This document shows positions 35,625 to 58,744 of a stretch of DNA of 64,000 nt, one piece after another. Position 1 is the first letter of the stretch; each line of letters begins with the position of its first letter. Location of the stretch: NCBI GenBank assembly GCA_038321865.1, contig JBBQFH010000004.1, positions 32,001-96,000 of the forward strand, read 5' to 3'. The position numbers and the translations under genes are program-made. This DNA comes from Gemmatimonadales bacterium. GTDB taxonomy: Bacteria > Gemmatimonadota > Gemmatimonadetes > Gemmatimonadales > GWC2-71-9. The notes under the pieces are model-generated. The model was not told the DNA's origin, searched no databases, and saw nothing but the letters and a program-made list of their open reading frames with translations.

Positions 35625-36103
35625 CCGAACACCGTGTAGCCGCCGCGGTAGTAGAGCAGCGGCCGCCCATCACCGGGGGCGCCGCCGATCACGCGTCCGA
35701 TCACGATGGTGTGATCGCCGGCTTCGACGAGGGCGTGCCGCTCACACTCGATGTGGGCGTGGGCACCGTCGAGCAACACGAGCCCGCTTTCGCTGAGCCG
35801 ATAGCCGATCCCATCGAACCGGCCGGCGTTCTCCGCGGCGAATCGGCGGGATACCGCCTCCTGCGAGTCACAGAGGATGTTGACCATGAACGTCGGAGCG
35901 GCGACGAGCGCCCCATGGATCGTGGCGGCGTGGTCGATCGCCAGCGAGAGGAGGGGCGGGTCGAGCGAGATGGAGGCGAGGCTGTTGGCGGTCATGCCGA
36001 CCGCGCGCCCGTCGGCCTCGCGCGTGGTCAGGACCGCCACGCCGGTGGCGAACCGCCCCAGCAGCTGGCGAAACCGCGCCGCGTCGATGTCGGGGGCGCT
36101 CAT
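35621..36103 (-). CDS. Flavin reductase-like protein
   Basis: FRQLLGRFATGV, GMTANS..SISLDPPL, AGDH, PLLYYRGGY. Confidence 0.93.
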   Translation of the reverse strand: MSAPDIDAARFRQLLGRFATGVAVLTTREADGRAVGMTANSLASISLDPPLLSLAIDHAATIHGALVAAPTFMVNILCDSQEAVSRRFAAENAGRFDGIGYRLSESGLVLLDGAHAHIECERHALVEAGDHTIVIGRVIGGAPGDGRPLLYYRGGYTVFG

Positions 36104-37305
36104 AGCACCATCTTCGCGAGGAAGAGCGGGTTGAGCACCTCACGGGCGGGGACGAAGTCGCCGGTGACGCCAATCAGGGTGTCGGCGAGGCCCCGCCGCT
36201 CGAGCCGGCCGACGGCGCGGTCGAACAGGCGGGGAAACCACATCCCGTATCCGATGAGGCGCTCGACCGCCCATTTGCCGGCGAACGCGCGCCGCCGGGC
36301 CGCCAGGTACGGCGCCAGCCGGCGGGCCCGCACCGTTCCCGGTGCCTCCAGCGCAAGCGGAATGGCGGCGGCCGCCAGCTCCGCGCCGCGGAGCGCGCTG
36401 CAGATGCCCTCGCCGGTGAACGGATCGAAGAAGTCCGCGGCATCGCCAAGCAGGAGGGCGCCGTCGGCGACGACCCGCGATGCGCGCGCGGCGAATGGGC
36501 CGGTGACCATGATCGGACGGATCATCCGGTCCCGTGCGACCCGGCCACGGACGCCCGCAAACGTGTCGAGCGCCTCGAAAAAGAACTCGTCGAGGCGTCC
36601 GCGCGCCTCGCGCGCGCGCGCCGCAGGGACGACGAGCGCGACATTGGTGACGCCGCTCCCGATCGGATTGAGCCCCACGTAGCCGTCCGTCCCCACGTAC
36701 ATCTCGGCCGAGCGTCCCAGTCCGGGCACGTCCGTCACATGGGCGACGAACGCGACCCGGCGCGGCCGTCCGTACCGCTGCTGTCCCAGCCGGCGTGCGA
36801 CGACGGAGCGCAGTCCATCGGCGCCGATCGTCAGCCGGGCGTGAATCACCCTGCGGTCCCCATTGGCGCCGCGCACCACGGCGCCGGCGACCGCGCCGGC
36901 GTCGTACACCAGATCCTCCACCGTGGTGCGCTCCAGCACCGTGGCGCCCGCCGCGCGGGCGCCGGCCAGGAGCCGGGCATCGAGCACCCGCCGCGAGATC
37001 GAGAGCCCGGTTGCACGGAAGGGCGGGTGACTGGCCCGGGCAAAGGCGCCGGCGAGCCGGGCCCCATGGGCGGCGGTGACGATCGTGCCTTCGAGGGCGG
37101 TTCCGCCCGCCGCATCGAGATCGGCGAGCGCGCCCAGCCGGTCGAGCACGCGAGCCGCCTCGGGGCTCATGTATTCGGAACAGGGCTTGTCCCGGGGGAA
37201 TGCCGCCCGGTCCACCACCGTCACCGCGACACCGGCCGCGGCGAGCAGCGTGGCGGCGGCACTCCCGCCGGGCCCGCCGCCGACGATCAGGACGTCAGCC
37301 GACAC
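36100..37305 (-). CDS. FAD-dependent oxidoreductase (geranylgeranyl reductase/halogenase-like)
   Basis: DVLIVGGGPGG, FPRDKPC, IGADGLRS, GDAADFFDPFTGEGI. Start GTG 37305. Confidence 0.88.
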   Translation of the reverse strand: MSADVLIVGGGPGGSAAATLLAAAGVAVTVVDRAAFPRDKPCSEYMSPEAARVLDRLGALADLDAAGGTALEGTIVTAAHGARLAGAFARASHPPFRATGLSISRRVLDARLLAGARAAGATVLERTTVEDLVYDAGAVAGAVVRGANGDRRVIHARLTIGADGLRSVVARRLGQQRYGRPRRVAFVAHVTDVPGLGRSAEMYVGTDGYVGLNPIGSGVTNVALVVPAARAREARGRLDEFFFEALDTFAGVRGRVARDRMIRPIMVTGPFAARASRVVADGALLLGDAADFFDPFTGEGICSALRGAELAAAAIPLALEAPGTVRARRLAPYLAARRRAFAGKWAVERLIGYGMWFPRLFDRAVGRLERRGLADTLIGVTGDFVPAREVLNPLFLAKMVL

Positions 37306-37723
37306 GCCGGTACTCGAGTCCGTCCAGCACCAGCCGGTCGCGCGAGAAGGCGGCAAAGGCGACGGAGAAGGTGGCGGGAAGCGTGCCGGGCACGCTGACG
37401 GTCACGGTGCCGGGGTTTTCAGCGTACGTGCAGTCGCGCGCCGTGGTGCGGGGAATGCCTTCAGAGACGAGCAGCGTGGTGACGGACTGGCGGCAGGAGC
37501 CATCTGCGGCAAAGCGCCAGGCCACCGTCGTGGTCTGGAGATCGGCGGAGATCAGGATGATGGTTTCCACCGTCCAGTCGCCGATGAGGGCGCTGGCCGA
37601 GGTCTGTCCGCCGATCGCCGGTGGGGTGATCGTGCCGAGTGTGCCGCCGCTCGAGCTGGGGCCGGTCTGCTCCGGGGCGCAGCCGCTCAGGGCCAGCGCG
37701 ACAGCCAGCCCCACGCCGCCCAT
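37295..37723 (-). CDS. Hypothetical lipoprotein (lipocalin-like)
   Basis: Lipobox LALSGC; LIGDW motif; beta-rich. Start uncertain. Confidence 0.6.
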   Translation of the reverse strand: MGGVGLAVALALSGCAPEQTGPSSSGGTLGTITPPAIGGQTSASALIGDWTVETIILISADLQTTTVAWRFAADGSCRQSVTTLLVSEGIPRTTARDCTYAENPGTVTVSVPGTLPATFSVAFAAFSRDRLVLDGLEYRRVG

Positions 37724-39429: not shown

Positions 39430-40050
39430 GTGACCGCCGTCGACATTCCCGCTTTCATTCCGCTGAGCCTGCTCGAAGCGATCCGCAATCTGGATACGCC
39501 GATCGAGGACGGGCTCGACGAACTATCACCCGAGATCGTCACCAAGCGGCTCGGGCTCAGCTCGACCGTGGCGGCGCAGATCGAGCGGTATCGCGGCAGC
39601 ACGGAACGCGATCTCTCGGTTTCCGCCGACGAGGCGGTCTCCGTCTTCCGGCTGGTCGGCCGGCGTCCCGACGCCGCGCTGGTGTTCGCGGATGCCGGGC
39701 GCCGGGCGGCCCGGTATGCCCTCAGGGGGGTGGCCACGCATACCCTGCTGAAGGTCGCGCCCAGTGGGGTGGGTCGCCGCCTGGTCAACCGCTCGGCCAG
39801 CCGCGTCGCCCGCGATGCGTTCGGCGCCGAGATGCGGCATCCGGCGGGCGGCGCCGAGGCGACCCTCGACGCACCGCTGTCCATTTCGGCCTGGCCGGCC
39901 GGCGAGGCGTGCGGGTTCTACAGCGCGGCGTTCACCGAACTGCTGCGGACGCTGACCGGACTGGAGGGCACGGTACGCCACGCCTCCTGCCGCGGGCGGG
40001 GTGACGCCGACTGCATCTGGCGCGCGGTGCGCGCGGAGGTCTATCAATGA
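39430..40050 (+). CDS. Hypothetical protein with C-terminal V4R-like domain
   Basis: ACGFYSAAFTELL...HASCRGRGDADCIW cysteine pattern. Confidence 0.65.
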   Translation: MTAVDIPAFIPLSLLEAIRNLDTPIEDGLDELSPEIVTKRLGLSSTVAAQIERYRGSTERDLSVSADEAVSVFRLVGRRPDAALVFADAGRRAARYALRGVATHTLLKVAPSGVGRRLVNRSASRVARDAFGAEMRHPAGGAEATLDAPLSISAWPAGEACGFYSAAFTELLRTLTGLEGTVRHASCRGRGDADCIWRAVRAEVYQ

Positions 40051-41222
40051 AGCCGCTCGAGGGAATGGACCGCGAGGCCCTGCGGCAGGGTCTGGACGCC
40101 GCCGGTGCCGACGCCTGGCTCCTCTTCGACTTTCACGGCCTCAACCCGGTCGCGGGACGGGTGCTCGGACTTGGCGGCATGGGGTCGCGCCGGATCTTCG
40201 TACTGCTCCCCCGGGACGGGGAGCCGGTGGCGGTCGCCCACAAGATCGAGCTGCAGCCGCTCGACGAGTTCCCGGGACGGGTCATTCCCTATGCGCGCTG
40301 GGAGGAGCTGCACGCGGCGCTGGGACCGCTCGTGGCCGGCCGGACACTGGCGATGGAGATCTCGCCGGACGACGCCGTGCCCTATCTCGATCGCGTCCCC
40401 TACGGGGTGGTGCAGCTGCTGACCCGGCTGGGCGCGACGGTGGTGCCGTCCGCCGCGCTGGTCACCGGTTTCGCGGCGCGGTGGAGCGAGGCCGAACGGG
40501 CGGACCACGTGTGGGCGGCAGAAGCCGTGGCGGCGGTGGCGCGGGCGGCGCTTGAGACGGCGGTCACCGAAGGCGGCAGCGGCCTCACCGAGACCGCGCT
40601 GCAGCGCCGGGTGGTCGCCGCGCTGGAATCGCGCGGCCTGGTGCTGGATACGCCGCCGATCGTCGGTTTCGGCGCCAACGCGGCCAACCCGCATTACGAG
40701 CCGAAGGCCGGCCGGGACGCGGTGCTGGCTCCGGACCAGGTCGTGCTGCTGGATCTGTGGGCCGGCCGCTCGCGGCAGACGGTGTTCGCCGATCAGACCT
40801 GGATGGGGTTCAGCGGCGCCCACCCGCCCAGCCGCGTGGCGGAGGTCTGGCGCGTGGTCCGGGACGCTCGGGACGCCGCCGTCTCCGCGATACGGAGCGC
40901 GGTGGAGGCCGGGCGGCCGATCGCCGGCTACGAGGGCGATCGCGCAGCCCGCGCGGTGATCGAGGGGGCCGGGTATGGTGATTACTTCGTGCACCGGACG
41001 GGACACTCGATCGATCGCGACCTGCACGGCTCCGGTCCCCATCTCGACGACTATGAAACGCACGACGATCGCCGGCTGGTGCCCGGCGTCGGCTTCTCGA
41101 TCGAGCCCGGCGTGTACCTTCCCGGGGAGTTCGGCGTGCGGAGCGAGGTGAACATGTACTGGGGGCCGGCCGGCCCCGTCGTGACGCCGGCCGAGCCGCA
41201 GCGCGAGCTGATTCTGCCGTGA
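40047..41222 (+). CDS. M24 Xaa-Pro aminopeptidase family protein
   Basis: NPHY, LLDLW, FADQT, HRTGHSI, FSIEPGVY, GVRSE. Confidence 0.92.
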   Translation: MKPLEGMDREALRQGLDAAGADAWLLFDFHGLNPVAGRVLGLGGMGSRRIFVLLPRDGEPVAVAHKIELQPLDEFPGRVIPYARWEELHAALGPLVAGRTLAMEISPDDAVPYLDRVPYGVVQLLTRLGATVVPSAALVTGFAARWSEAERADHVWAAEAVAAVARAALETAVTEGGSGLTETALQRRVVAALESRGLVLDTPPIVGFGANAANPHYEPKAGRDAVLAPDQVVLLDLWAGRSRQTVFADQTWMGFSGAHPPSRVAEVWRVVRDARDAAVSAIRSAVEAGRPIAGYEGDRAARAVIEGAGYGDYFVHRTGHSIDRDLHGSGPHLDDYETHDDRRLVPGVGFSIEPGVYLPGEFGVRSEVNMYWGPAGPVVTPAEPQRELILP

Positions 41223-41407: not shown

Positions 41408-41436
41408 TTGACACCGGTTTTTGCGCGCCACATATT
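41408..41436 (+). promoter_or_regulatory. Putative sigma70 promoter for the receptor operon
   Basis: TTGACA-N17-CATATT. A second candidate, TTGCAA-N16-TAGTAT, lies at 41228-41255. Confidence 0.5.
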
Positions 41437-41633: not shown

Positions 41634-44600
41634 ATGAAGCAAAGCTGTGTCAGCGCCTTCGCTCGCGTGGCGCGCTTTTGCGCGCTCGTGGCAGTCGCGC
41701 TGGGCCTCGGAGCGGGTTCGCTCCTCGCCCAAGCATCGACTGGTAAGATCGAGGGCAGGGTCCGCGACCAGAATGGCGCGCCCATCAACAACGCTCAAGT
41801 TTCGCTCAGCGGCACCGCGTTCAGCGCGCTTTCGAACGCACAGGGCTACTACTTCATGAACAACGTGCCGGCCGGCACGGTGACGGTCCATGCGGCCTTC
41901 ATCGGGTACCGGGCGGTCAACGTGACCGGCGTGAAGGTCCTGGGCGGTCAGACCATCACGACCGACGTCACGATGGAAGCGACGACGGTCGTCCTCGAGG
42001 CGATCAACGTCGTCTCCACCCAGCCGTTGGTTCCCCGCGACGAAGTCACGACCAAGCAGCGGGTGGACGGTGACTTCACCAGCAAGCTCCCGGTCGACCG
42101 GATCGCCAACGTCCTGGCGCTGCAGCCGGGCGTGGTCGCCAATTCGGCGGGTGGCGGCCTTTCGATCCGCGGTGGCCGTACCGACGAGAACGTGACCTAC
42201 GTCGACGGCGTGCCGGTTCAGGCCGGAAACCGCGGCACGGCCGTGAGCGGTGGTAATGAGATCGGCATCGCTACGAACGCGTTCGAGGAAGCCTCGGTCA
42301 CCACCGGCGCGAGCTCAGCCGAGTTCGGCAACGCGCAGTCGGGCGTCATCTCGATCTCGACCAGGGCCGGCAACTCCCAGCGCTGGGCCGGTAATTTGGG
42401 TTACGAGTCTGACGCCATGATGCCGGCGTCGTCGAGCCTCGGCCTGACCCGGGTGCAGGCGTCCATCGGCGGCCCCCTGATGCGGGGACTGACGTTCTTC
42501 GTCTCCGGCGGACTCCAGGGGCAGAAGTCGCCCGCCTTCGGTGTCGGGGCCAACAAGTACCCGAACTTCGTTCCGGTGGGGATCGACACGACCGTCAAGG
42601 TGCCGTCCGCGCCGAACAGCCCAACCTCGGACACGACGCTGGTCGATGTGCTCAAGTACGCGGAGTTCCGCGGCAACTGCGATCAGTTTGCCAGCAGCGC
42701 GAACGCCGGCATCGCCAGCAACTACGGCGTCAGCTGCCAGGGCAGTCGCACAGCATGGCAGCCGGCCTCCGACTACACGCTGCAGAGCAAGCTGCAGTAC
42801 ACGTATGGCACCGGTTCGCGCTTCTCGCTCAGCGCGCTGGGAAGCCAGGCCCAGAATCGCGGCGCCAACTTCCAGAATCCGATCAACACCTTCGGGACGC
42901 GGAGCTGGAACCGGGCGTACATCATGAACTGGACGCAGAACCTGTCCAAGTCGGCTGAGCGCGCGCTTGCGCTCGACGTGTACGGGTCCCTGCAGCGCGA
43001 CCGGTCGATGACCTCGCCGCTGACGCAGGCCAGCGAGCTCAGCACCCGTGATCCGTTCGGCGGGTTCCTGATCAAGCCGCTGAAGTTCCTGTTCGACTTC
43101 CAGTCGTTCCCGCTGGATTCGCAGCTCATCGCGAACTACCGGGACAATACGCCGGGCTCGCGGCGGTCGCCGTACGACCTCGAGAACACGACGCAATACC
43201 AGACCAACTCGCAGTACCGCAGCAACGCCTTCGGACTGACCGGCACGCAGGAGAGCGGCGGCCCGACCGGCGGGCTGAACATGAACCGGGAAAACCGGGC
43301 GATCGGCAAGGCCAATCTCGACTGGCAGTTCGACCGCTACAACCGGCTCAAGATCGGCGGCGAATACACCAAGTATTCGATCGACAACTACAGTCACGGC
43401 CTGACCAGCCAGGCCTTCTCGTCGATCTTCAGCGAGAAGCCGGTCCGCTGGGACGGCTTCATGGAAGATCGTCTCGACCTCGGTGACGTGGTCGTCGTCG
43501 GCGGCCTCCGCTACGACTACTACGACACCCGTGCGAGCCGCCCGTACTCGCTCGACACCGTCGCGGCGAGCCCGACGTTCAACACCTACCAGCCGTTCCC
43601 GCGCATCTCGAGCTATGCCGGGACGTTCAACGGACAGCCACTGGTGTCGTTCATCCGGGACCAGCACCACACCTACGTGAGCCCGCACATCCAGGTCTCG
43701 TTCCCGGTCACCGACCGGACGAACTTCCGGCTGTCGTACGCGCACCAGGTGCAGGCGCCTGACTTCGGCCTGCTGCTCGGCGGCATCAACACCGACCTGT
43801 CGATCACGAACACCAACAACACGTATGGGACCGACATCGGGTTTGGCAAGACGATCACCTTCGAGTTCGGCATCCGGCACGCGTTCAGCGACGACATGGT
43901 GCTGGACGTCGCGGCGTACAACAAGGACAAGCTGGCCGACGCCGCCGACCGCCTGATCTCGCTGCAGGATCCGACCCGCCACAACAGCCGCGTGGATATT
44001 CGCGAGCTGACGACGGCGGACTTCGGCAACACCCGCGGCGTGGACGTCCGGCTCGATCGCCGCTTCGGCAACATCTTCAACGGCACCCTGGCCTACACCT
44101 ACCAGCAGGCCAAGAACACGGGTTCCGATCCGTTCACCTACATCAACTTCGGCTCGCGCGTCATCAACCAGCTCTCCGGCGGCAATCAGGCGCCGCCGCA
44201 GGCGATCGCGCCGACGGCAAACAGCCGTCCGCACAACCTCGCGGCGGCGGCCTCGCTCGCGTTCCCGCGCGACTGGAAGCAGGGCTCGATGCTCGGGTCA
44301 CTGCTGCGCAACGTCGGCATCTTCGCGACGTTCCGCTACGCCAGCGGCACGGCGTACACCAGCTGCGAGACGCTGGGCAACGAGACGGTCATCTCGGGTG
44401 CCGTCTGCGCCAAGGGTCAGCTCATCAACGGCCTCAACGACGCGCGGCTGCCGAACTTCAAGCAGTTCGACCTGCGGGCGTCCAAGGGTCTCCGGCTCGG
44501 CGGGCTGGATCTCTCGGCCTACGTTGACGCCCGGAACGTGCTCAATTTCCGCAACGTGCTCGCCGTCTTCGTCACCTCCGGTGACATCGTGAGCCCGCTG

Positions 44601-44936
44601 GAGCACACGACGCGGTTCGCCGGCGACAGCTCAGTGTACGCCCAGGAAGCGAAGGCGAACAGTATCTACAACGCAAATACCGGCGATATCAACCTCACGT
44701 TCGGCGGCGCCGGCAACTCCGGCTGCGCCAACTACGTGACGGCGGGTGGTGCGGGCGCGCAGCCGAGCTGCATTCAGCTCATCCGGGCGGAACAGCGCTT
44801 CGGGAACGGCGACGGCGTCTTCAGCCTCGCTGAGCAGCATAAGGCGTCGGACGCCAGCTACTACGGCGGCCGTGGCGACTTCGCCTTCCTCGGCGCCGGC
44901 CGTCGCGTTCGCCTCGGACTCGAGCTCAACTTCTAG
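41634..44936 (+). CDS. TonB-dependent receptor with N-terminal carboxypeptidase-regulatory-like domain
   Basis: Signal peptide, TGKIEGRVRD, plug LSIRGGR..YVDG, SAEFGNAQSGVI; barrel SPHIQVSFPV; C-terminal RLGLELNF. Confidence 0.92.
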   Translation: MKQSCVSAFARVARFCALVAVALGLGAGSLLAQASTGKIEGRVRDQNGAPINNAQVSLSGTAFSALSNAQGYYFMNNVPAGTVTVHAAFIGYRAVNVTGVKVLGGQTITTDVTMEATTVVLEAINVVSTQPLVPRDEVTTKQRVDGDFTSKLPVDRIANVLALQPGVVANSAGGGLSIRGGRTDENVTYVDGVPVQAGNRGTAVSGGNEIGIATNAFEEASVTTGASSAEFGNAQSGVISISTRAGNSQRWAGNLGYESDAMMPASSSLGLTRVQASIGGPLMRGLTFFVSGGLQGQKSPAFGVGANKYPNFVPVGIDTTVKVPSAPNSPTSDTTLVDVLKYAEFRGNCDQFASSANAGIASNYGVSCQGSRTAWQPASDYTLQSKLQYTYGTGSRFSLSALGSQAQNRGANFQNPINTFGTRSWNRAYIMNWTQNLSKSAERALALDVYGSLQRDRSMTSPLTQASELSTRDPFGGFLIKPLKFLFDFQSFPLDSQLIANYRDNTPGSRRSPYDLENTTQYQTNSQYRSNAFGLTGTQESGGPTGGLNMNRENRAIGKANLDWQFDRYNRLKIGGEYTKYSIDNYSHGLTSQAFSSIFSEKPVRWDGFMEDRLDLGDVVVVGGLRYDYYDTRASRPYSLDTVAASPTFNTYQPFPRISSYAGTFNGQPLVSFIRDQHHTYVSPHIQVSFPVTDRTNFRLSYAHQVQAPDFGLLLGGINTDLSITNTNNTYGTDIGFGKTITFEFGIRHAFSDDMVLDVAAYNKDKLADAADRLISLQDPTRHNSRVDIRELTTADFGNTRGVDVRLDRRFGNIFNGTLAYTYQQAKNTGSDPFTYINFGSRVINQLSGGNQAPPQAIAPTANSRPHNLAAAASLAFPRDWKQGSMLGSLLRNVGIFATFRYASGTAYTSCETLGNETVISGAVCAKGQLINGLNDARLPNFKQFDLRASKGLRLGGLDLSAYVDARNVLNFRNVLAVFVTSGDIVSPLEHTTRFAGDSSVYAQEAKANSIYNANTGDINLTFGGAGNSGCANYVTAGGAGAQPSCIQLIRAEQRFGNGDGVFSLAEQHKASDASYYGGRGDFAFLGAGRRVRLGLELNF

Positions 44937-45020
44937 TGTCACCGGTGCGCCTGCGGGTGCCGCGGCAGGATCGCGACACCCGTCGGGCTCGCCACCGTTA
45001 TTCCATCTGGAGAGGACGCA

Positions 45021-48000
45021 ATGCACTCACTTTTTGGTAAGAGAGGCGTAATGCTGGCGGGCCTCCTTGCCGTGGCACTGGCGGCGATGACGCCGACGGC
45101 CGCCTCGGCAAAGCCCGAGCCGGGCGCGCGCGGGCGGGGTTTCCGCCTGTTCGCCCGCAGTCTCGGCGCCCTCACCGTCAACCGCGTCTATTGCGGCCTG
45201 GCGACGACGGGCGAGGTCTGCGTCGATTCGTCGAACTCGTCAACCATCGGCGGCGGGTATTGGCCCAAGGGCACCGCTGACCAGTACATCTTCAATTCCG
45301 GCCTGCAGCTGGCCGGCGTCATCGGCGGCACCAAGCCGAGCAACCCGTGGGGCGGCGACACCACGGGCGCGTTCTTCTTCGACCCGAAGGGCACCACGCA
45401 GCACGGTCAGGAAGTGCAGCCGATCTACAACTCACAGAATCCGGACGACGTCGCCAACTGGCCCGCCGCGGCGTTCGTGCCGCAGGGCGATGCCACCGGC
45501 GCGCTGTTCGATCCCCTGCTGCAGGGGCGGGTCAATGCCTCGCAGGGCGACGTCTGGTTCCTGAGCTGGGAAGGCAACCCGACCCAGAACGCCGGCCGTC
45601 TGCACCCGCTCGGCGTCATGGTCGAGACTCGCGGCATGGGCTGGAACTTCCCGACTGGCAACCAGGACATCATCTACTTCGTCTACACCTTCTATAACAT
45701 CACGTCGACGAGTGCGGCGGACTACGCGGCCGCCCGTCCCGCGATCCAGCCGATCCTCCTGCAGCAGGCCCAGGCATTCCAGGCCCAGAACAACGCGGCT
45801 TTCGGGATCACGCTGCCGGCCGGCGGCTACACCATCAACAACCTGTTCGCGGCCTTTGCGCGTGACGACGATGTCGGCAACGCCGGCACCAACTTCTCGT
45901 CGGTGAATCTGCCGTTCGCGCTCGGGTATACCTACGACCAGGACTTCGGCCGGCCGGCCGGCTGGACCTTCGATCCGGCGATCTTCTCCTCGCCGTTCTT
46001 CGCGGGCGTCGGCTTTACCGCGGCCAAGTACCTCAAGAGCCCGTCCGGCCCCGGCCAGATTCAGCTCTTTTCGAACACCGTCAACGGTACGCCGTTCGCC
46101 GGCGCGCTGAACGACTCCCGCGACACCAAGCAGCTGTTCCGCTACCTCTCCGGCACGCTCTCGCCGGCGTCGGGCGACCAGCAGTGCAACGTGAGCGGCA
46201 GCCCGGCCATCACCCGTGTCTGCTTCGTCAACAACACGTCGGCGGCGGACATGCGGTTCTTCGAGTCATCCACGCCGCTGACGCTCGCTCCGGGTCAGTT
46301 CAGCTCGATCGTCGTGGCGTACATCTTCGCGGCGCCGGTCATTACGGCCAGTGTCACGCCGAGCAGCTCGCTCCACCTGCAGCCGGGCAACCCGCTGGTG
46401 CTCGATCCGAAGACGCCGGCGGCCGCCACCGCGCTGGCCACCACCGGCGCCAACAAGGTCGACTCGCTGATGGGCTTCCGCGGCTGGACCGACATCAGCG
46501 GTGATTGCGCCACGGTCGTGGCGACGTCGCCGGTCGGCTGCGCCCAGCAGAACGAGTTCCGGGTGGTTCCGGGCTCGATGCTCGGCAAGGCCAACGTCGC
46601 TCAGGCGGTGTTCAACAACAAGTTCCTGCTCCCGTTCGCCCCCGACAGCCCGGACTTCTTCCTGGTGCCGGGCGACAACCAGGTCACCGTCCTCTGGCGC
46701 CCGTCGGCCAGCGAGGCCTCGGGCGATCCGTTCTTTGCCGTGGCCAAGCAGGCCACCGTGATCGACCCGGTGACCAGCACCGTGGTGGCGAACCCGCTCT
46801 ACGACCCGAACTATCGCCAGTTCGACGTCGAGGGCTACCGCATCTATCGCGGGCGGGTGGACGCGCCGAATGCGCTGACGCTGATCGCCCAGTTTGACTA
46901 TGCCGGCACCAGCATCAAGGACTTCGCCGGGCAGATCAATCCGGTCATCAACTGCGCGCCGGAACTCAATATCTTCGGCCCGCCGGCGTCAGCATGTCCG
47001 TTCGACAATCCGTTCCCCACCCCGGGCACGCTCACGCAGACGCGCATCAAAAACGTCTCGATTCCGCTCACCGGCGGCATCGTACAGGTTGCCCTGGGCC
47101 AGCGTTCCGCGCTCGCCACGTCGCCGCAGACGGCGATCGTGCTCGCGGCGGATACGGCGGTTACGGGTGGCGGTGCCAACGGCCCCTGCGCTCCGAGCCT
47201 CTGCCCGGAGCTCCGCGACAACGGCGTGCCGTTCGTCTACGTCGACAACACCGTGCGGAACAATTTCCGCTACTTCTATTCGGTGACGGCGTTCGACATC
47301 AACTCGTTCCAGTCAGGCCCGACCAGCCTCGAGTCGCCGCGGCTCACCAAGTCGGTGACGCCGAGCGCGCTGGCGGCCAATTTCCAGAACACGGCCAGCA
47401 CGTCGAACGCCATTTTCGGCCGTAACGTCGCGTTGACCGACAATGCGGTGCCGGCGCTTGATCCGACGACCGGCATCTTCAGCAAGCCGTTCCCGCCGGC
47501 CGACGGCTGGTCCCTTTCGCTCGCGGCCTTCGTGAAGGAGCTGATCGCAGCTCCGGGCGCGGTTGCCGTGCGGCTTGACAGCCTGCAGCTCGGCTCGGCC
47601 TACGACAACGCGGTCAACAAGTATTTCGTCACGATCAACCCGGGTGCATCGCAGAGCAACGCGGTTCTGTCGCTGCTTCAGGCGCAGACGACCGGGATTA
47701 CGACGTCGAGCGTCGGATTCACCGGCGTGAACGTGGATCAGTCACTCGCCGCCCGGTTCGGCGGCAGCAGCGCCTTCTCGATTCCGGCGTCGCTGACGGC
47801 GAAGATCGACGGCAACTACTACACGAACTCGTTCGGCCGCGGCTGTATCAACAGCGCCACCGGGTTCGGGAGCAACACGGCAAAGTGCGACTATAACGGT
47901 GCCCGCTGGTTCATGGGCCCGTCGCCGGCCAACAACGAGACCAAAGCCAACCCGACCGCCCCGGGCAACCAGGCGAATAGCGGTGGGCCGACGGTTCCGA

Positions 48001-49028
48001 CCAACTTCAACAACGCCGGCCAGCTCACCGGTGTGACGACGATTTACGAGGGCCGGTCGTACCAGACGCTTGAGAACACGTACCGTAACGTCGAGGGCGC
48101 GCTGGGTGGCGCCGTACGCGCCGCGGACTTCAACGTGTACTGGGGCGCTGCGGGCAAGGTCGACTCGGTCATCGACGTGACGCACAATGTGGTGGTGCCG
48201 TTCTATGGCGATCACATCGCCGGCGGCTGGGGCATCCTGAACCAGTCGGCCACCACGGCCGTGGGCTCGGCGGACACCCGCCCCACCGTGCTCACCATCG
48301 GCGACTGGGGCTGCGTGCCTCCGCTCAAGACCTACACCGCAGTGCAGAGTAAGCTGCCGTGCTCCGCTGGCACCACGTACGCGCTGAGCAACACGGCGGT
48401 CCCGGGCAACATCGCCCTCGTCGGTGGATCGACGAGTGTGGGCACGGCGACGATGATCAACGCGCCGGTGGCGGGGCAGGGCTTCATGATGTACCTGCCC
48501 GGTCACATCTTCTCCTTCGTTCTCGCGGCGGGCGTGCCCGCTTCGGGCACGGTCTGGTCGATGCGCAGCTACACGGGCGCGATCCAGGGCGGTCAGGGTG
48601 GCCCAGGCGGGAACGAGGGTCCGTACGTCTTCACCCCGACGATCCGGACATTCTCGGCGCTGAATGCGGAGCTTCGGTTCAGCTTCGACGTCGTGAATCA
48701 GCTGGTCTCGACGAGCAGTGCTGATCTCAGCAAAGTGCACACCGTGCCGGACCCGTACTACGTCACCAGTGAGTTCGAGCAGACGACGGATACCAAGATC
48801 GTCAAGTTCGTCAACCTGCCGAACGACGCTGTCATCCGGATCTACTCCTCAAGCGGGGTGCTGGTCGACCTCCTCGAGCACCACTCCACCCAGTTCGGGG
48901 GGGCGGAAGACTGGAACGTGCGGAACCGGAACAATCAGGTGGTGGCGAGCGGTGTGTACTTCTATCACATCGAGTCCGGCGATGCACGACGGGTCGGACG
49001 CTTCACGATCGTGAATTTCGCCCAGTAG
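45021..49028 (+). CDS. Large secreted protein with T9SS-like (FlgD/Ig) C-terminal sorting domain
   Basis: Signal peptide; FN3-like GDNQVTVLW...EGYRIYR...YFYSVTAFD; CTD VPDPY...IRIYSSSGVLV...WNVRN..VASGVYFYHI...GRFTIV. Confidence 0.82.
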   Translation: MHSLFGKRGVMLAGLLAVALAAMTPTAASAKPEPGARGRGFRLFARSLGALTVNRVYCGLATTGEVCVDSSNSSTIGGGYWPKGTADQYIFNSGLQLAGVIGGTKPSNPWGGDTTGAFFFDPKGTTQHGQEVQPIYNSQNPDDVANWPAAAFVPQGDATGALFDPLLQGRVNASQGDVWFLSWEGNPTQNAGRLHPLGVMVETRGMGWNFPTGNQDIIYFVYTFYNITSTSAADYAAARPAIQPILLQQAQAFQAQNNAAFGITLPAGGYTINNLFAAFARDDDVGNAGTNFSSVNLPFALGYTYDQDFGRPAGWTFDPAIFSSPFFAGVGFTAAKYLKSPSGPGQIQLFSNTVNGTPFAGALNDSRDTKQLFRYLSGTLSPASGDQQCNVSGSPAITRVCFVNNTSAADMRFFESSTPLTLAPGQFSSIVVAYIFAAPVITASVTPSSSLHLQPGNPLVLDPKTPAAATALATTGANKVDSLMGFRGWTDISGDCATVVATSPVGCAQQNEFRVVPGSMLGKANVAQAVFNNKFLLPFAPDSPDFFLVPGDNQVTVLWRPSASEASGDPFFAVAKQATVIDPVTSTVVANPLYDPNYRQFDVEGYRIYRGRVDAPNALTLIAQFDYAGTSIKDFAGQINPVINCAPELNIFGPPASACPFDNPFPTPGTLTQTRIKNVSIPLTGGIVQVALGQRSALATSPQTAIVLAADTAVTGGGANGPCAPSLCPELRDNGVPFVYVDNTVRNNFRYFYSVTAFDINSFQSGPTSLESPRLTKSVTPSALAANFQNTASTSNAIFGRNVALTDNAVPALDPTTGIFSKPFPPADGWSLSLAAFVKELIAAPGAVAVRLDSLQLGSAYDNAVNKYFVTINPGASQSNAVLSLLQAQTTGITTSSVGFTGVNVDQSLAARFGGSSAFSIPASLTAKIDGNYYTNSFGRGCINSATGFGSNTAKCDYNGARWFMGPSPANNETKANPTAPGNQANSGGPTVPTNFNNAGQLTGVTTIYEGRSYQTLENTYRNVEGALGGAVRAADFNVYWGAAGKVDSVIDVTHNVVVPFYGDHIAGGWGILNQSATTAVGSADTRPTVLTIGDWGCVPPLKTYTAVQSKLPCSAGTTYALSNTAVPGNIALVGGSTSVGTATMINAPVAGQGFMMYLPGHIFSFVLAAGVPASGTVWSMRSYTGAIQGGQGGPGGNEGPYVFTPTIRTFSALNAELRFSFDVVNQLVSTSSADLSKVHTVPDPYYVTSEFEQTTDTKIVKFVNLPNDAVIRIYSSSGVLVDLLEHHSTQFGGAEDWNVRNRNNQVVASGVYFYHIESGDARRVGRFTIVNFAQ

Positions 49029-49086
49029 CCCACAGCAGGGGGACCGGGGGGAACAACCCCCGGCCCTCTCATCCAGGAGAGCGGAA

Positions 49087-50208
49087 ATGAGTCAGTTCAC
49101 TGCACGACGGTTTGCCCTGGTAGCGGCGCTGCTGAGCGGAGTTCCCGCCGGGTTGGCGGCGCAGAGCACGACCCAGGACAATACCGGCTACGGCACCACA
49201 TCGGCGGAGTTCCTGCTGCTGGGTGCCGGCGCGCGCGGTGCCGCCCTTGGCGGCGCCTTTGCCTCCATCGCGAGCGACGTCAGCGCGCTCTACTACAACC
49301 CGGCAGGCACGGCGCTGATGGCCCGCCCCGGCGCGATGCTCAGCAGCTATCGCTACGTCGCCGGCACCAAGTACAGCTGGGGTGGCTTCGCCATTCCGAC
49401 CTCGGGTGGGTCCCGGGCCTTCGGAGTGCAGATCGGCACCTTCGGCTTCAGTAACCAGCCGGTCTACACCGCCGATCAGCCCGACGGCACCGGCGCGAAC
49501 TACTCGGTCAACGAGACGTTCGTCGGCCTCACCATGGCGCAGAACTTCTCGGATCGCTTCTCGGCCGGCATCACGCCGAAGTTCATTTTCGACAACCTCG
49601 GTGACGCCAGCGGCACCGCGTTCGCCGTGGACTTCGGCACGAACTTCCACGCCATGCTCAGCGGCCATCCGATCAAGTTCTCGTTCGTGCTGGCCAACCT
49701 CGGCAGCAACATCAAGTACGGCGGCACGGCCCTCAACAGCTCCACGCCGCGCGAGCCGCTTCCGGGTGAAGACCCGGTCCCGGGCCTCAATCAGCCGTCG
49801 CAGCTCCGTACGAAGGACTTCCCACTCCCGACGCTGTTCCGCGTCGGCCTGGCGTACGATCTCATGGGCGGCGAGTCCAGCCACCTCACGCTGTTGTCCG
49901 ACTTCAATCAGTCGACCAGCAACAAGGCCGGCTTCTCCGTCGGCAGCGAGTTTGCGTCCACCCGGCTCGGCGGCAGCGGCTTCGGCTTCGCGCTCCGCGG
50001 CAGCTACAGCTATCAGCCCGCGAACAACCTGAAGGTCGTCGATCCGGTGAGCACCGCGCTCACCGATGAGGAGAACCTGCAGGGGCTCGCTGTAGGCGGC
50101 GGTCTCAACTACGCCAGCGGGAATTTCAATCTCGGCTTCGACTACGCGTATCGGTACCAGGGCATTCTCGGCGGCACCAACTTCTTTACCTTCAGCGTTG
50201 GTTGGTAG
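49087..50208 (+). CDS. PorV/PorQ-family outer-membrane beta-barrel
   Basis: AEFLLLGAGARGAALGGA...DVSALYYNPAG, FAVDFG, LPTLFRVG, FDYAY; C-terminal SVGW. Confidence 0.88.
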   Translation: MSQFTARRFALVAALLSGVPAGLAAQSTTQDNTGYGTTSAEFLLLGAGARGAALGGAFASIASDVSALYYNPAGTALMARPGAMLSSYRYVAGTKYSWGGFAIPTSGGSRAFGVQIGTFGFSNQPVYTADQPDGTGANYSVNETFVGLTMAQNFSDRFSAGITPKFIFDNLGDASGTAFAVDFGTNFHAMLSGHPIKFSFVLANLGSNIKYGGTALNSSTPREPLPGEDPVPGLNQPSQLRTKDFPLPTLFRVGLAYDLMGGESSHLTLLSDFNQSTSNKAGFSVGSEFASTRLGGSGFGFALRGSYSYQPANNLKVVDPVSTALTDEENLQGLAVGGGLNYASGNFNLGFDYAYRYQGILGGTNFFTFSVGW

Positions 50209-50360
50209 CACCGGGTGAGGCTCGACAGGCCGCTGTGGTCATGAAGGACCACGGCGACCTGCGGGGCCTGTCCAACGAAGGACGGGTTGGGCGTCTCTAG
50301 GGATGCCGGCGCTGGATGCCGGCCCCAGGCCATTGTTTCTTCCCATCCCGAGGCAGGCGC

Positions 50361-51800
50361 ATGTCGCGTTCATATTTGCTGTTGCTGGCTGCTGCAGTCT
50401 GGGCGGGTCCCGTACTAGCCGCTCAGGCGACCGATCCTCTGACGGTTCGCGCCGTGCGTTTCTACCGCGCGGACGGGCAAAAGACGACGGTCAAGGCGTT
50501 CGTCGAGGTCCCCGCCGCGCTGGGCGAGCCGATGGCCGCCGGCCGGACCGATTCGGTCCGCTATCAGGTGCAGCTCAAGGTGATCGATGCGGCCGGCGTC
50601 ACGCTCCACAGCGAGACCTGGGGCAAGAATCTGCTCAACGAGCCGGGTGCCGCCGGTGTCGACATCGTTGAGTTCATCGTTTCGCCGGGCAAGTACCGCC
50701 TGGATGCCGCTGTGCTGAACGCGGCCGGACAGCGAAAGGCGGAAAGCAGCGTCAGTATCGAGGGGTACGCCACGCCTCCTCAGGCGTCGGATCTGCTCCT
50801 TGCGCCGATGATGCGGATCGCCGACAACGCCAGCGACACGGTTCCGAAGGGCGGCGAAATGCGCCGCGGCAATACGCTGATCGCCGCGACGGCAACATTG
50901 CACCTGACACCGCTCCGGTCGCGGGCGTTCTACCTGCTCGAGGCCTACAACCCGGGCGAGCTGGACCAGACGGGCAGCATGCAGGTGTCGGTGCTGGACA
51001 CGGCAGGACGGACGCTGACGCAGACACCCCCGGTCGCGGTGCGCATCGGCCCGGGTGGCGGGCTCCTCAAGGGGCAGATCGACCTCGAGGGTCTTCCGGA
51101 GGGCCGCTACAGCATGAAGGTGGCGGTTGACCTCGGCGGCAGGACGGTGGAGCGGACGGCCGATCTGACCATGGCCCCCCTGGCGACCACCGTAGCGAAG
51201 AACGCCGCGCTGACCCGGGTCGCGCTGACGACGGACGAGGGGTTCTTCGCGGCAATGACGGACGCCCAGCTGGACACGGCCGCGGCGCCGCTGATGTACC
51301 TCGCCAATGGCAGTGAGCGGTCGCTCCTGAGATCGTTCGACAAGCTGTCTCCGCTGGCCAAGCGGAGGATGCTGACCGAATTCTGGCAGAAGCGGGCGCC
51401 GGACAAGACGCTGCAGCAGAACGCGGCGCGCGAGCGGTTCTACGAGGCGATCGAATTCGCCAACCGGGCGTTCACCGAGGGAACCCGCCGGGCACAGGCG
51501 GGCTGGCGTACCGATCGGGGCCGCATTTATGCCAAGAACGGCGCCCCTGACGACGTGCTGAGACGGCCGAGCGGCGGGACGGTGCCGTACGAGGTGTGGC
51601 GTTACACGCGGGGCCGTAATCGTTATTATGTATTTGCCGACCGGACCGGGATCGGGGCATACAATCTCCTGCAGAGCAACGACCTGCAGGAGGCGACCTT
51701 CCCCGGCTGGCGCGAGATCTTGAAGGAAGACGCGGTGATCGACATCGGCCGCTACGTCGGGGTCGACTTCTACAGCGGCAACCAGCAGAGCGGAAACTGA
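50361..51800 (+). CDS. GWxTD domain-containing secreted protein
   Basis: Signal peptide; EFWQKR, AGWRTDRGRIYAKNGAPD, PYEVWRY, YYVFAD. Confidence 0.9.
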   Translation: MSRSYLLLLAAAVWAGPVLAAQATDPLTVRAVRFYRADGQKTTVKAFVEVPAALGEPMAAGRTDSVRYQVQLKVIDAAGVTLHSETWGKNLLNEPGAAGVDIVEFIVSPGKYRLDAAVLNAAGQRKAESSVSIEGYATPPQASDLLLAPMMRIADNASDTVPKGGEMRRGNTLIAATATLHLTPLRSRAFYLLEAYNPGELDQTGSMQVSVLDTAGRTLTQTPPVAVRIGPGGGLLKGQIDLEGLPEGRYSMKVAVDLGGRTVERTADLTMAPLATTVAKNAALTRVALTTDEGFFAAMTDAQLDTAAAPLMYLANGSERSLLRSFDKLSPLAKRRMLTEFWQKRAPDKTLQQNAARERFYEAIEFANRAFTEGTRRAQAGWRTDRGRIYAKNGAPDDVLRRPSGGTVPYEVWRYTRGRNRYYVFADRTGIGAYNLLQSNDLQEATFPGWREILKEDAVIDIGRYVGVDFYSGNQQSGN

Positions 51801-51950
51801 ACGTGACCGCCCGGCCGGAGCGCCCTGGAGACGCCGTCATCGCATGAGAGCGCGGCACAATTCAGGTGCCGACACAGGGCGGCTTCGGCCGTGCGGGTAT
51901 CACTGGGGATTCCGGTCCCTCGTTTCCAGTCCCAACTCGAGGTGCTCGTT

Positions 51951-53342
51951 ATGAAGCAATGGCTACGTCCTATTATGCTGCTCGCGATCCCGATTGCCGC
52001 CTGGGGATGCAAGAGCGATCCGACCGTCACCAACGACATCGGTACCCCGTCGAAACTGGTCGCCAGCCCATCGACGGTCTTTGTGGCGCAAGGCGCCTCG
52101 GAGGCCACGTCAGTCACGCTGGTAGATGCCAACGGCAACCCGGTCCCCGGCACGTTCACCCTGACCCCGCCGAGCGACGCCAATTTTACGGTGGTGCAGG
52201 ACACGAGCCAGCTGCTGATTTATGACGCGGCAGGCAACTCGGTGCAGCGGAGCAGCCAGTCTTCGGCCCGGTACACCATCACGGCGAACGGGTTCGGAGC
52301 GACGTCGTTCCAGGTGACGTCGGGCAGTCTCACCACCACGATCAACGTGTCTTCGTACCCGGCAACGCTGCCGGCGACGTTCAACACGGGTACGCCAGCC
52401 GTCGGGCAGACGGTGACCGTCACTGCTCCGGCCGGCACGTTCTTCCGGCCCACGTCGACGATTGCGTTTGCCGGCGTTGCCGACGCGAGGATCATATCGC
52501 GTGCGGCCGACAGCTCGTCGATCACGTTCCTCGTACAGCCGGGCACGAACGGCGTCGCCACCATCTCGAATGTAGGAGTTCGGTCCAGCCCGACGCTCTC
52601 ATTCACGGTCCCGACCATTGCCACCGTCAAGCTGCCGGCGCCGACGACGTTCATCGGCACGATCAACACGACGACTCCCGCCGCCGGACAGACCGTTATC
52701 CTGACCGGCACGGGCTTCAAGGTTTCGCCGGCCGCGACAGTCACCGTCGGGGGTACCCCGGCCATTTCCATTACTACGGCGGCGGACAGCTCGACTCTGA
52801 GCTTCATCCCGGCGCCCGGAAGCTCGGGAATCATCAATGTGACCGGTGCGGCGGCGAACGGTTTCGCGCTCGGCCTGCTGCCGACCACGTTGTCGCTCAC
52901 GGCTGGCTCGGGTGCCGTCACCAAGATCGCCGGAACCGATGCGCTGGGCACGGCCCCGACGCTTAATGTTGCGGCGGGTCGCGCCACGGGCTTCATCGAC
53001 GCGCCGCCGTTCGGCTACCTCGGGACCGGCTGCACCACGTCGCTGGGCGATCCCTGCAATGTGTACAAGATCGTCACCACAACGGCGAACCAGAAGTTTA
53101 CGGTGACGCTCGACTGGAATAACACCTCCGATCTGGGCCTGTACGTGCTCAACTCCGCCGGCGCGCTGGTTGCTGGCGCGGGCAACGCTGACGCAGGCGG
53201 CACCGGAGCCAGCGGACACCCGGAAAATGCTACGCTCACCTTCGCTACTCCGGGGACGTACTATCTCGCGGTCCTGCGCTTTACCTACGCGGGCTCCACG
53301 GTCGATCCGACATACTACACCGTCCAGATTACGGGCCTGTAG
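51951..53342 (+). CDS. Thr/Ser-rich lipoprotein with tandem Ig/IPT-like repeats and a C-terminal PPC-like domain
   Basis: Lipobox AAWGC; two repeats GQTV..T...AADSS(S/T)(I/L); C-terminal SDLGLYVLN...E.....PGTYYL. Confidence 0.75.
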   Translation: MKQWLRPIMLLAIPIAAWGCKSDPTVTNDIGTPSKLVASPSTVFVAQGASEATSVTLVDANGNPVPGTFTLTPPSDANFTVVQDTSQLLIYDAAGNSVQRSSQSSARYTITANGFGATSFQVTSGSLTTTINVSSYPATLPATFNTGTPAVGQTVTVTAPAGTFFRPTSTIAFAGVADARIISRAADSSSITFLVQPGTNGVATISNVGVRSSPTLSFTVPTIATVKLPAPTTFIGTINTTTPAAGQTVILTGTGFKVSPAATVTVGGTPAISITTAADSSTLSFIPAPGSSGIINVTGAAANGFALGLLPTTLSLTAGSGAVTKIAGTDALGTAPTLNVAAGRATGFIDAPPFGYLGTGCTTSLGDPCNVYKIVTTTANQKFTVTLDWNNTSDLGLYVLNSAGALVAGAGNADAGGTGASGHPENATLTFATPGTYYLAVLRFTYAGSTVDPTYYTVQITGL

Positions 53343-53366
53343 TCGGTAGTTGCTCAGCAGTACGCG

Positions 53367-53402
53367 GAAGCCCCCGGCAGGTTGCCGGGGGCTTCTGTTT
53401 TT
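53367..53402 (+). terminator. Intrinsic terminator
   Basis: GAAGCCCCCGGCA-ggt-TGCCGGGGGCTTC followed by TGTTTTT. Confidence 0.85.
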
Positions 53403-53413
53403 CCTGCCCGGCT

Positions 53414-55224: not shown

Positions 55225-55228
<4 letters not shown>
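53414..55228 (-). CDS. ABC exporter, fused TMD-NBD (MsbA-like)
   Basis: TM domain; GPSGGGKTT, LSGGQRQR, ILDEATSSLD, IAHRLST. Confidence 0.93.
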
Positions 55229-57117
<1,889 letters not shown>

Positions 57118-57216
57118 TAGTATCAATCCCGGGCAGATGATCGTCGGCCGCGCGGCGGCGGCGAAACGAGCGGAAAGAACGGCCTCCCTCGCCCCCTTGT
57201 CAAGGAAATTGCCCTC

Positions 57217-58587
57217 ATGTCAGAACCCCGCGATGCCTGGGGCGAACGGCTCCCGCGCCACCTCGGCTTGTGGAGCGCGGTCGCCGTGCTGGTGGGGTCG
57301 ACCATCGGCAGCGGCATCTTCCGGGTACCGGCCGGAGTGGCGGCCACCCTGGGCCAGCCGGGACCCGTCATCCTGGCCTGGGTGCTGGGCGGGGCGATCG
57401 CGCTCTTCGGGGCGCTGACCTACGCCGAGCTGGCGGCGGCGCTGCCGCGCTCCGGCGGAGTCTTCGCGTACATCCTCGAGGCGTTCGGGCCGTTGCCCGC
57501 CTTTCTGTTCGGCTGGTCGGAGCTGGCGGTCATCCGCGCCTCCGCGCTCGGTGCCATCGCGACGATCTTCGCCGAGTACCTCGGGTTCTTCATCCGGCTG
57601 TCGCCGATGGAAGTGCGCTGGGTGGCCGCCGGCGCCGTGATCCTGGTGGGGATCTTCAACTACGTCGGCGTGAGCCTCGCCGCTGTCGTGATGAACCTGA
57701 CGACGGTCGGCAAGTACGGCGCCCTGACCGCGCTCTGCCTGCTCGCCTTTGCCGCGGGGGACGGCAGCGCCACCCACTTCACACCGGCCTGGAGTGCCGG
57801 CCTCAATCTCTCGCTTTTGGCCACCGCGCTCATTCCGATCATGTGGACGTACGACGGCTGGGCCGACCTCGCCTTCATGGGCGGGGAGGTGAAGGATCCG
57901 CAGCGCACCCTCCCCCTCGCGCTCATCATCGGCACGGCGGCGATCGTGGTCGTGTACCTGGTGCTCAACCTGGCTTACATCTACCTGCTGCCGCTGCCCG
58001 AGATGGCGGGTGCCAAGCTGATCGCCTCGACGGCGGCCGAGCGGATTCCGCTGCTCGGAAGCCGCGGGGCGGCGGTGATCGCCGGCGTGGTCATGCTTTC
58101 GTGCTTCGGCTCGCTGAACGGATCGATGATGACCGGGCCACGGATCTTCTTCGCGATGGCCGACCGCGGGCTGTTCTTCAAGGGAATCGCCCGGGTCTCG
58201 CCCCGATTCAAGAGCCCTTCGGTGGCCATCCTGCTGGCCACGACGCTCGGCGTCGTCTACGTCCTGCTGAACGATTTCGCGCAGCTGGCGGACAAGTTCA
58301 TTCTCGGGATCTGGCCCTTCTATGCCCTCGCCGTCGGGGCGGTCTTCGTGTTCCGGCGTACCCGGCCCGACCTCGTTCGCCCCTACCGGACGTGGGGCTA
58401 TCCGGTGGTGCCGATCCTGTTCCTGGTGGCGTCCGTCGGCATGGTGGTGAACGCGCTGGTCACCGACCCGCGCAACACCGGGATCACCTTCGCCATTATC
58501 CTGGCCGGCGTGCCTGCTTACTATGCGTGGCGGGCCTGGTCCGGGCGGGCCCGGACCGATTCCGTCGCGGGCGGCGACACTGCTTGA
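57217..58587 (+). CDS. APC family amino acid permease
   Basis: GSTIGSGIF, YAELAAALPRSGG, WTYDGW, GEVKDPQR, RPYRTWGYP. Confidence 0.93.
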   Translation: MSEPRDAWGERLPRHLGLWSAVAVLVGSTIGSGIFRVPAGVAATLGQPGPVILAWVLGGAIALFGALTYAELAAALPRSGGVFAYILEAFGPLPAFLFGWSELAVIRASALGAIATIFAEYLGFFIRLSPMEVRWVAAGAVILVGIFNYVGVSLAAVVMNLTTVGKYGALTALCLLAFAAGDGSATHFTPAWSAGLNLSLLATALIPIMWTYDGWADLAFMGGEVKDPQRTLPLALIIGTAAIVVVYLVLNLAYIYLLPLPEMAGAKLIASTAAERIPLLGSRGAAVIAGVVMLSCFGSLNGSMMTGPRIFFAMADRGLFFKGIARVSPRFKSPSVAILLATTLGVVYVLLNDFAQLADKFILGIWPFYALAVGAVFVFRRTRPDLVRPYRTWGYPVVPILFLVASVGMVVNALVTDPRNTGITFAIILAGVPAYYAWRAWSGRARTDSVAGGDTA

Positions 58588-58611
58588 CCTCGCCCGACCG
58601 CGGCGTATACT
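58584..58611 (+). promoter_or_regulatory. Putative sigma70 promoter
   Basis: TTGACC-N16-TATACT upstream of the second receptor. Confidence 0.55.
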
Positions 58612-58744
58612 TCCCGCCGAAGGTCAGGCCCATCACCTAATCGCCGCAGTGCAAATCTCCCGCGTCTCCAGCCGCAGCTGGCCACGCCGGGGCATGTTTT
58701 CGGAGCGCAGCTCTCCACCTCTCGCTGGTGAGGACATCGGGACT

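Follow-up and report, generated by a model that had tools for sequence, protein, structure and literature searches.

A conserved gene triplet of a TonB-dependent transporter, a CTD-tagged cargo protein and a PorV-family barrel in Gemmatimonadales and distant relatives

A 64,000-nucleotide stretch of a Gemmatimonadales genome (assembly GCA_038321865.1, contig JBBQFH010000004.1, positions 32,001 to 96,000; hereafter the window, from whose first letter coordinates are counted unless a contig is named) carries five plus-strand open reading frames (ORFs) at 41634..53342, closed by one terminator-like hairpin. A sequence-only reading had described five co-oriented genes and a terminator here and suspected a non-Bacteroidota host; genes and terminator are where it placed them, and homologs with names, together with related contigs, assign the host to Gemmatimonadales. 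The conserved unit, however, is three genes, not five: a TonB-dependent transporter, a secreted cargo protein with a type IX secretion system (T9SS) C-terminal domain (CTD), and a PorV-family outer membrane barrel. The remaining two genes, for a GWxTD protein and a lipoprotein with immunoglobulin-like (Ig) repeats, are lineage-specific extras. We lean, with limited confidence, toward reading the first three genes as a surface capture-and-import unit, in which a SusD-like cargo would leave the cell through SprA and be retained by the barrel. The window lies on contig C4 of our genome G000, whose assembly is 89.85% complete.

The triplet and its products

Gene order is conserved in relatives, as the sequence-only reading required, both at near-relative loci and in distant genomes of the Fibrobacteres-Chlorobi-Bacteroidetes (FCB) group. 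In near relatives the cargo gene adjoins the barrel gene at 13/13 loci, with a GWxTD gene next in 12; at 40 further loci, which were chosen as cargo matches, all five genes stand in order in 35 and the first four in 37. A metagenome scan with the distant cargo alignment returned 74 loci of 29-69% GC, comprising 47 complete triplets, 23 loci cut by a contig end, 3 rearranged and 1 without the barrel gene, and none of the 74 has a GWxTD gene. Along its whole length the distant cargo is homologous to ours (hhalign 100%, 872 columns), and its named members come from KSB1, WOR-3, Ignavibacteriales, and Calditrichaeota. The transporter gene lies directly upstream of the cargo gene in 58 of the 59 distant loci with upstream DNA (L170 is the exception), and at L194 the barrel gene sits between transporter and cargo. 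Copy numbers of cargo and barrel rise in step with the transporter, one for one: of the PorV loci listed for genome G005, all 13 were examined and 11 are triplets, and of 12 such loci in genome G008, 7 were examined and 6 are triplets, in both genomes without a GWxTD gene. One record titled Bacillota (L018) holds the whole operon at 73-88% identity and is probably a mislabelled or misbinned Gemmatimonadales contig.

The first gene (41634..44936) encodes an 1100-aa protein with a signal peptide, an N-terminal CarboxypepD_reg domain, a Plug domain (33.9 bits in the Pfam scan, cut-off 23.9), and a large barrel with a terminal F, which bears out its identification as a TonB-dependent receptor; a homolog (L093) exceeds the Pfam cut-off for the TonB-dependent receptor barrel. 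As a member of the SusC/RagA family it scores far below the cut-off (TIGR04056, 27.9 bits versus 368.25). The gene that follows encodes the CTD protein, without a SusD match in the Pfam/NCBIfam scan, and SusD_RagB (PF07980) gave 0 matches in the 89.85% complete genome, with a positive Bacteroides thetaiotaomicron control. This agrees with the SusD independence proposed in the sequence-only reading. TonB-ExbB-ExbD-like genes lie on contig C27 of the same genome and a Tol-like set on C14. Two more transporters of the triplet family, neither with cargo or barrel, are encoded at C7:30952-33738 and C7:44866-47670, the latter after two lipoproteins with TolB-like repeats, as read from sequence.

The second gene (45021..49028) encodes the 1335-aa cargo, which has no Pfam family and gave 1621 homologs in a sequence search. 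Its tail (48738..49025) appears to be a real, though divergent, type A CTD of marginal score: against TIGR04183, whose cut-off is 23, the full-length protein scores 21.2 bits and the isolated last 120 residues 26.2, and the CTD claimed by the sequence-only reading holds in a divergent form. Among 97 homologous tails, 53 match TIGR04183 at E<=0.001 and 83 match the PorZ tail; the type B family TIGR04131 is not listed among the families that they matched, and CHU_C reached 20.4 against a cut-off of 27. The two best solved-structure matches of the tail profile are the CTDs of PorU and PorZ, both of which are retained on PorV-family barrels. The body is a different protein, scoring 12 and 26 bits against PorU and PorZ (cut-offs 420 and 260); the cargo model has no propeller or C25 domain, and sequence comparison with solved structures gave no match besides the tail. 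A CTD profile search found no other CTD-bearing ORF in the genome.

The cargo model (residues 31-1230; predicted local distance difference test, pLDDT, 89.6; predicted template modelling score, pTM, 0.75; 61 sequences) is mostly beta. In this model the first ~500 residues resemble the beta-supersandwich N-domain and linker helix of glycoside hydrolase (GH) families GH15, GH94, and GH116, the predicted supersandwich spanning about residues 44-540 (45150..46640). Its best fold match, in a search that effectively covered residues up to about 580, is 9ju0 (VIA; Z 19.0, root mean square deviation 3.3, 255 residues aligned), and Foldseek likewise returned GH94/GH116 matches. The catalytic helical barrel of GH15/GH94/GH116 is missing from the model. 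The domain that follows holds the most conserved residues and, judged from its motifs, we infer it to be FN3-like.

The third gene (49087..50208) encodes a 373-aa barrel that matches the PorV/PorQ family as predicted (NF033709, 134.8 bits, cut-off 90), and its family profile aligns with Flavobacterium johnsoniae PorV (6h3i) at E 4.5e-31. It scores well below the PorV equivalog (45.9 bits, cut-off 250) and the PorQ ortholog model (NF033711, 72.9 against 220), while the PorZ model gave the cargo 26.4 against 260 (NF052228, tail only). A quick, midpoint-rooted tree of 60 barrels, including 41 of 97 triplet barrels, puts the PorV proteins linked to era or porU on one side and the triplet and M6-linked barrels on the other (Shimodaira-Hasegawa-like approximate likelihood ratio test 99), the triplet group by itself being unsupported. 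The cargo has a dedicated barrel, in a clade distinct from porU/era-linked PorV, much as the sequence-only reading had it with "its own PorV paralog."

The M6-linked barrels come from four loci (L085, L098, L119, L123), where a gene for an M6-like metalloprotease with an FG-GAP propeller and a CTD precedes a short PorV paralog; these paralogs are below the cut-off of NF052323 in NCBIfam and fall with the triplet clade. Two apparent 1250-aa PorV fusions (L204, L211) were set aside, as they look like long off-frame ORFs.

SprA and other type IX parts

The triplet is not a self-contained minimal secretion module, which the sequence-only reading had offered as one possibility, since sprA lies 11 kb away and tracks the cargo. 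The gene (C4:96562-102735, a 2057-codon open frame; TIGR04189, 479.5 bits summed, cut-off 200) begins 11.3 kb downstream of the operon, just past the end of the window, and in many genomes of the same family it is found 13-22 kb from the triplet barrel gene. In the region G000:C4:96679-108620, sprA and lptF/lptG point away from each other, and beyond sprA come genes for a probable M28-type peptidase lipoprotein and pilB/pilT/pilC-like genes of type IV pili, as read from sequence.

We surveyed 151 genomes of the phylum by profile searches. SprA was found in 120/151, a PorV-family protein in 137/151, and the cargo family in 78/151. SprA is present in 77 of the 78 cargo-positive genomes, the exception being a weak match, while both cargo and canonical PorV are missing from 28 of the 31 genomes without SprA; 43/120 SprA-positive genomes gave no cargo match. 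Since relatedness makes the genomes non-independent, the counts amount to association and no more.

Of the type IX genes that the sequence-only reading named alongside its module, only sprA was found in this genome. GldM and GldN were each found in 0/151 genomes, GldL in 0/151 over the cut-off with three weak matches, and GldK not in the genome itself; these searches had no Gld-positive control genome, and divergent homologs are not excluded. PorU was found in 0/136 genomes of the host's class, and the genome itself gave a tail match only, whereas 15/15 genomes of the phylum outside the class (families f10-f12) carry it. PorP/SprF (TIGR03519) gave 0 matches in the genome, in a search where no positive control gave a match.

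The triplet barrel is the only PorV-family gene found in its own assembly. A gene may have been missed, since the stretch upstream of prfB where canonical porV usually sits is at the end of contig C69, and no era gene was found. Canonical PorV was also not found in several genera with long contigs (g4 0/11, g7 0/5, g11 0/6, g16 0/5), and 38 SprA-positive genomes have cargo and no canonical PorV that we could find. In other Gemmatimonadota a second, single-copy PorV-family gene usually lies between era and prfB-lysS (L201-L210, L109-L117). It groups with porU-linked PorV and is present in 83/151 genomes, 80 of those SprA-positive, and many of its carriers have neither triplet nor PorU.

Proposed role and alternatives

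By analogy with F. johnsoniae and Porphyromonas gingivalis, the cargo, bound to the barrel, would pass to the cell surface via SprA, whose gene lies 11 kb downstream; with no sortase PorU found in the class to remove its tail, it would remain attached by that tail to the PorV-like barrel encoded beside it. It would then present substrate to the transporter, the job of SusD in Bacteroides, and energy for the transporter would come from the TonB-ExbB-ExbD operon of contig C27. The weakest steps in this scheme are the proposed direct contact of cargo and transporter and the proposed binding of substrate by the supersandwich.

A SusD-like capture role is suggested by the one-to-one amplification with the transporter together with a setting like that of polysaccharide utilization loci (PULs). 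Beside distant triplets, GH or carbohydrate-binding module (CBM) domains occur in 24/74 adjacent ORFs, at 20/52 loci, with types GH9, GH13, GH16, GH94, GH144-type, CBM9, and CBM20; sugar-type binding proteins, LacI regulators, and peptidoglycan amidases are further neighbors. At E<=1e-12 the count is 15/74 adjacent versus 6/90 control ORFs (p 0.017). In G005 and G008, sigma-54/ROK regulators make up 11/37 triplet neighbors versus 1/90 control ORFs. A glycan is the probable substrate of the multi-copy distant relatives. One subgroup of distant triplets (L128, L129, L130, L133, L160, L136) has a peptidoglycan amidase or SpoIID gene next in order and may take up cell wall fragments.

The 11 paralogs of G005 differ most in the cargo N-domain (median identity 33%, against 56% for the transporter, 64% for the barrel, and 71% for the CTD). 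In partial Mantel tests on these paralogs the transporter co-diverges with the N-domain (0.49, p 0.002) rather than with the CTD (0.07), and the barrel with the CTD (0.54, p 0.001) rather than with the N-domain (0.16).

Several observations weigh against a capture-and-import unit. The co-divergence is weaker in 34 metagenome triplets (transporter with N-domain 0.32, with CTD 0.27), and since the N-domain adjoins the transporter gene and the CTD adjoins the barrel gene, gene order alone predicts the crossed pattern. The controls for the metagenome GH/CBM enrichment were drawn from other genomes (G005/G008) and are unmatched, and in G005/G008 themselves GH/CBM neighbors are not enriched (4/37 versus 6/90, p 0.48). 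In the window, 38 other ORFs plus those of the operon scan include no carbohydrate-active enzyme. The periplasmic domain of YidC is also a supersandwich (Z 12.2), so the fold is no proof of sugar binding. Orphan or extra cargo copies occur (L238, L221, L246), as does a 44%-identical transporter on contig C7 without adjoining cargo or barrel. Finally, substrate release in F. johnsoniae needs the Gld motor, according to passages of PMC10994853, and none was found here.

Alternatively, the cargo could be an adhesin or surface scaffold, exported and tethered to the barrel, co-transcribed with the transporter and never touching it. A mostly beta, Ig/FN3-rich model with no recognized catalytic domain would suit such a protein, as would the housekeeping-like, single-copy context in the host's family and the orphan copies of transporter and cargo just mentioned, and static, shuttle-anchored type B adhesins are described in PMC12618676. 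We nevertheless consider this explanation unlikely, because the transporter gene keeps its place immediately upstream at nearly all distant loci with upstream DNA, the triplet is amplified as a unit beside sigma-54/ROK regulators, and the cargo N-domain co-diverges with the transporter.

Still less probable, in our estimate, is that the cargo is a surface enzyme (a lyase, mutarotase-like or glycan-processing) that cuts substrate near the transporter instead of serving as a passive lid. Aldose epimerases and some lyases (3mwx, 5xq3, 9k1g) have a supersandwich as their catalytic unit, and the invariant acidic residues D252 and D380 in the supersandwich of the cargo model align with conserved aspartates of distant members. 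The best matches, however, are the non-catalytic N-domains of GH15/GH94/GH116, with the catalytic helical barrel missing; the family adjoins starch, beta-glucan, and peptidoglycan enzymes alike, as a generic binder would; and no enzyme family was matched in Pfam or NCBIfam by the 17 members scanned.

We give very little credence to a transporter-like barrel that carries no nutrient and couples TonB energy to ejection of the PorV-cargo pair from SprA in place of the Gld motor: the failure to find GldL/M/N/K (without a positive control), the energy-requiring release from SprA (PMC10994853), and the 38 genomes with SprA and cargo and no canonical PorV found would fit it, but the transporter cannot be a general motor when 43 of the 120 SprA-positive genomes lack a cargo match and the PorV loci examined in eight such genomes have no triplet. 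Uptake is also the better explanation for 11 diverged copies that each neighbor other catabolic genes.

The capture-and-import reading places the triplet beside several known systems. Like SusC/SusD, it pairs a transporter gene with a following gene for a large surface partner, exists as many paralogs per genome, and has glycoside hydrolases and regulators beside its distant copies. Unlike SusC/SusD, its transporter is far below the SusC cut-off, its partner, instead of being a lipoprotein, is a supersandwich-bearing CTD protein of 1000-1400 aa, and its third gene would supply a protein anchor rather than a lipid anchor. The passages of PMC13543919 that give the pedal-bin model for SusC/SusD are silent on T9SS and Gemmatimonadota. 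The type B CTD and SprF/PorP pair of F. johnsoniae and P. gingivalis (PMC12618676, PMC9143113) likewise has a cargo gene followed by its own shuttle barrel gene, and PMC12618676 states that type B cargo with a dedicated shuttle, the product of the next gene downstream, is produced in amounts that match it and can remain anchored; stable surface tethering would be shared by the triplet cargo. The triplet differs in its type A-like tail, its PorV/PorQ-family barrel, and the TonB-dependent transporter in the unit. Of the attachment complex PorU-PorV/PorZ-PorQ of P. gingivalis it shares the CTD type, the tail profile being best matched by the PorU and PorZ tails, and, if the scheme holds, a CTD retained on a PorV-family barrel; the cargo body is unrelated, and no sortase was found in the host's class.

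With the Bacteroidota T9SS (SprA-PorV-GldKLMN) the genome shares an SprA over the cut-off, a PorV-family barrel, and a type A CTD, and it differs in that GldK/L/M/N, PorU, and PorP were not found. Published work states that a complete T9SS was found only in Bacteroidetes (PMC4793230), that a T9SS may occur in Gemmatimonadetes (PMC11285876), that PorV, SprA, and Plug alone form a partial set in Ignavibacterium and Melioribacter (PMC11705866), and that the CTD binds its carrier inside SprA without energy while extraction of the pair needs energy (PMC10994853); further T9SS background is given in PMC11205867 and PMC9143113. PorV2/PorU2 models already exist in NCBIfam. The literature searched, whose coverage leaves out most subscription journals and supplements, gave no description of the triplet.

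As a tentative and rather doubtful proposal, the triplet may be a third substrate-capture architecture across uncultured FCB phyla, a counterpart of SusC/SusD working with a Gld-free SprA, and carrier-anchored display of transporter partners may be an older job of the type IX translocon than gliding. Should the absence of Gld hold and the root fall right, a Gld-free SprA would challenge the inferred origin of T9SS from gliding (PMC12635249). If the capture-and-import reading is right, it bears on that question and on what frees substrate from SprA when the Gld energy chain, required in F. johnsoniae (PMC10994853), is missing. It would also provide a marker for nutrient-utilization loci in abundant lineages of soil, sediment, and sea, loci overlooked by PUL predictors based on SusC/SusD, and would give a name to a large protein family that lacks annotation. 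The simplest test system would be lineages in which SprA appears to have a single cargo on a single barrel to serve, and cultured Gemmatimonadota exist.

Adjunct genes, operon signals and neighboring genes

The fourth gene (50361..51800, with an alternative longer start at 50316) encodes a 479-aa protein whose identity as a GWxTD protein is secure (TIGR04514, 77.1 bits, cut-off 28). Its model (pLDDT 93.1) shows a signal peptide-bearing protein of two Ig-like sandwiches and a helical plus alpha/beta GWxTD domain, and the fold search, effectively covering residues 5-254, returned generic Ig sandwiches alone. The sequence-only reading had counted this protein in the core module, which we reject: beyond its absence from the distant loci, it follows none of the f10 triplets, and four further GWxTD-type matches lie elsewhere in the genome, beside polA and other unrelated genes. 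A GWxTD gene stands 3' of the barrel gene in several Gemmatimonadota families and not elsewhere (it follows the barrel in L111 and L120, for example), which makes it an adjunct. It may be a periplasmic helper. No paper using the term GWxTD was found in the literature searched.

The fifth gene (51951..53342) encodes a 463-aa, fast-diverging adjunct that is an Ig-repeat lipoprotein as described before, with a lipobox (WGC at residue 20), Ig-type repeats, and a C-terminal PPC domain; its nearest Atlas clusters carry Big_2.

Upstream of the operon, a sigma-70-like promoter match (TTGACA-17-CATATT, 41408..41436, plus strand; 10/12 matches) is a consensus match only. The intrinsic terminator-like hairpin (53364..53406, plus strand; 16-pair stem and T-tail, 53364-53398) lies 22 nt past the last stop. 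Terminator-like sites in the scan number 8 versus 7.7 in shuffles, a count not above chance, and the operon-closing hairpin has by far the longest stem among them. Strong GC-rich hairpins without U-tails occupy the intergenic gaps 44937-45020, 49029-49086, and 50209-50360, and could possibly give unequal mRNA levels along the operon.

A V4R-domain gene and an M24 peptidase gene (39430-41222) lie 5' of the operon, as in most near relatives. Between the operon and sprA, the window encodes an Oar-like second TonB-dependent transporter (OMP_b-brl_4; 58523-61906), kept near the operon in L012, L021, L022, and L023. Elsewhere in the window are a pqqB/pqqC/pqqE-like cluster (1027-4033; lactamase B, TENA/PQQC, and radical SAM-SPASM domains), a small cluster of ketosynthase, polyketide cyclase, methyltransferase, flavin reductase, and FAD oxidoreductase genes (33225-37356), and a CtaA (COX15)-CtaB/CyoE (UbiA) fusion, a haem A/O synthase (55228-57126).

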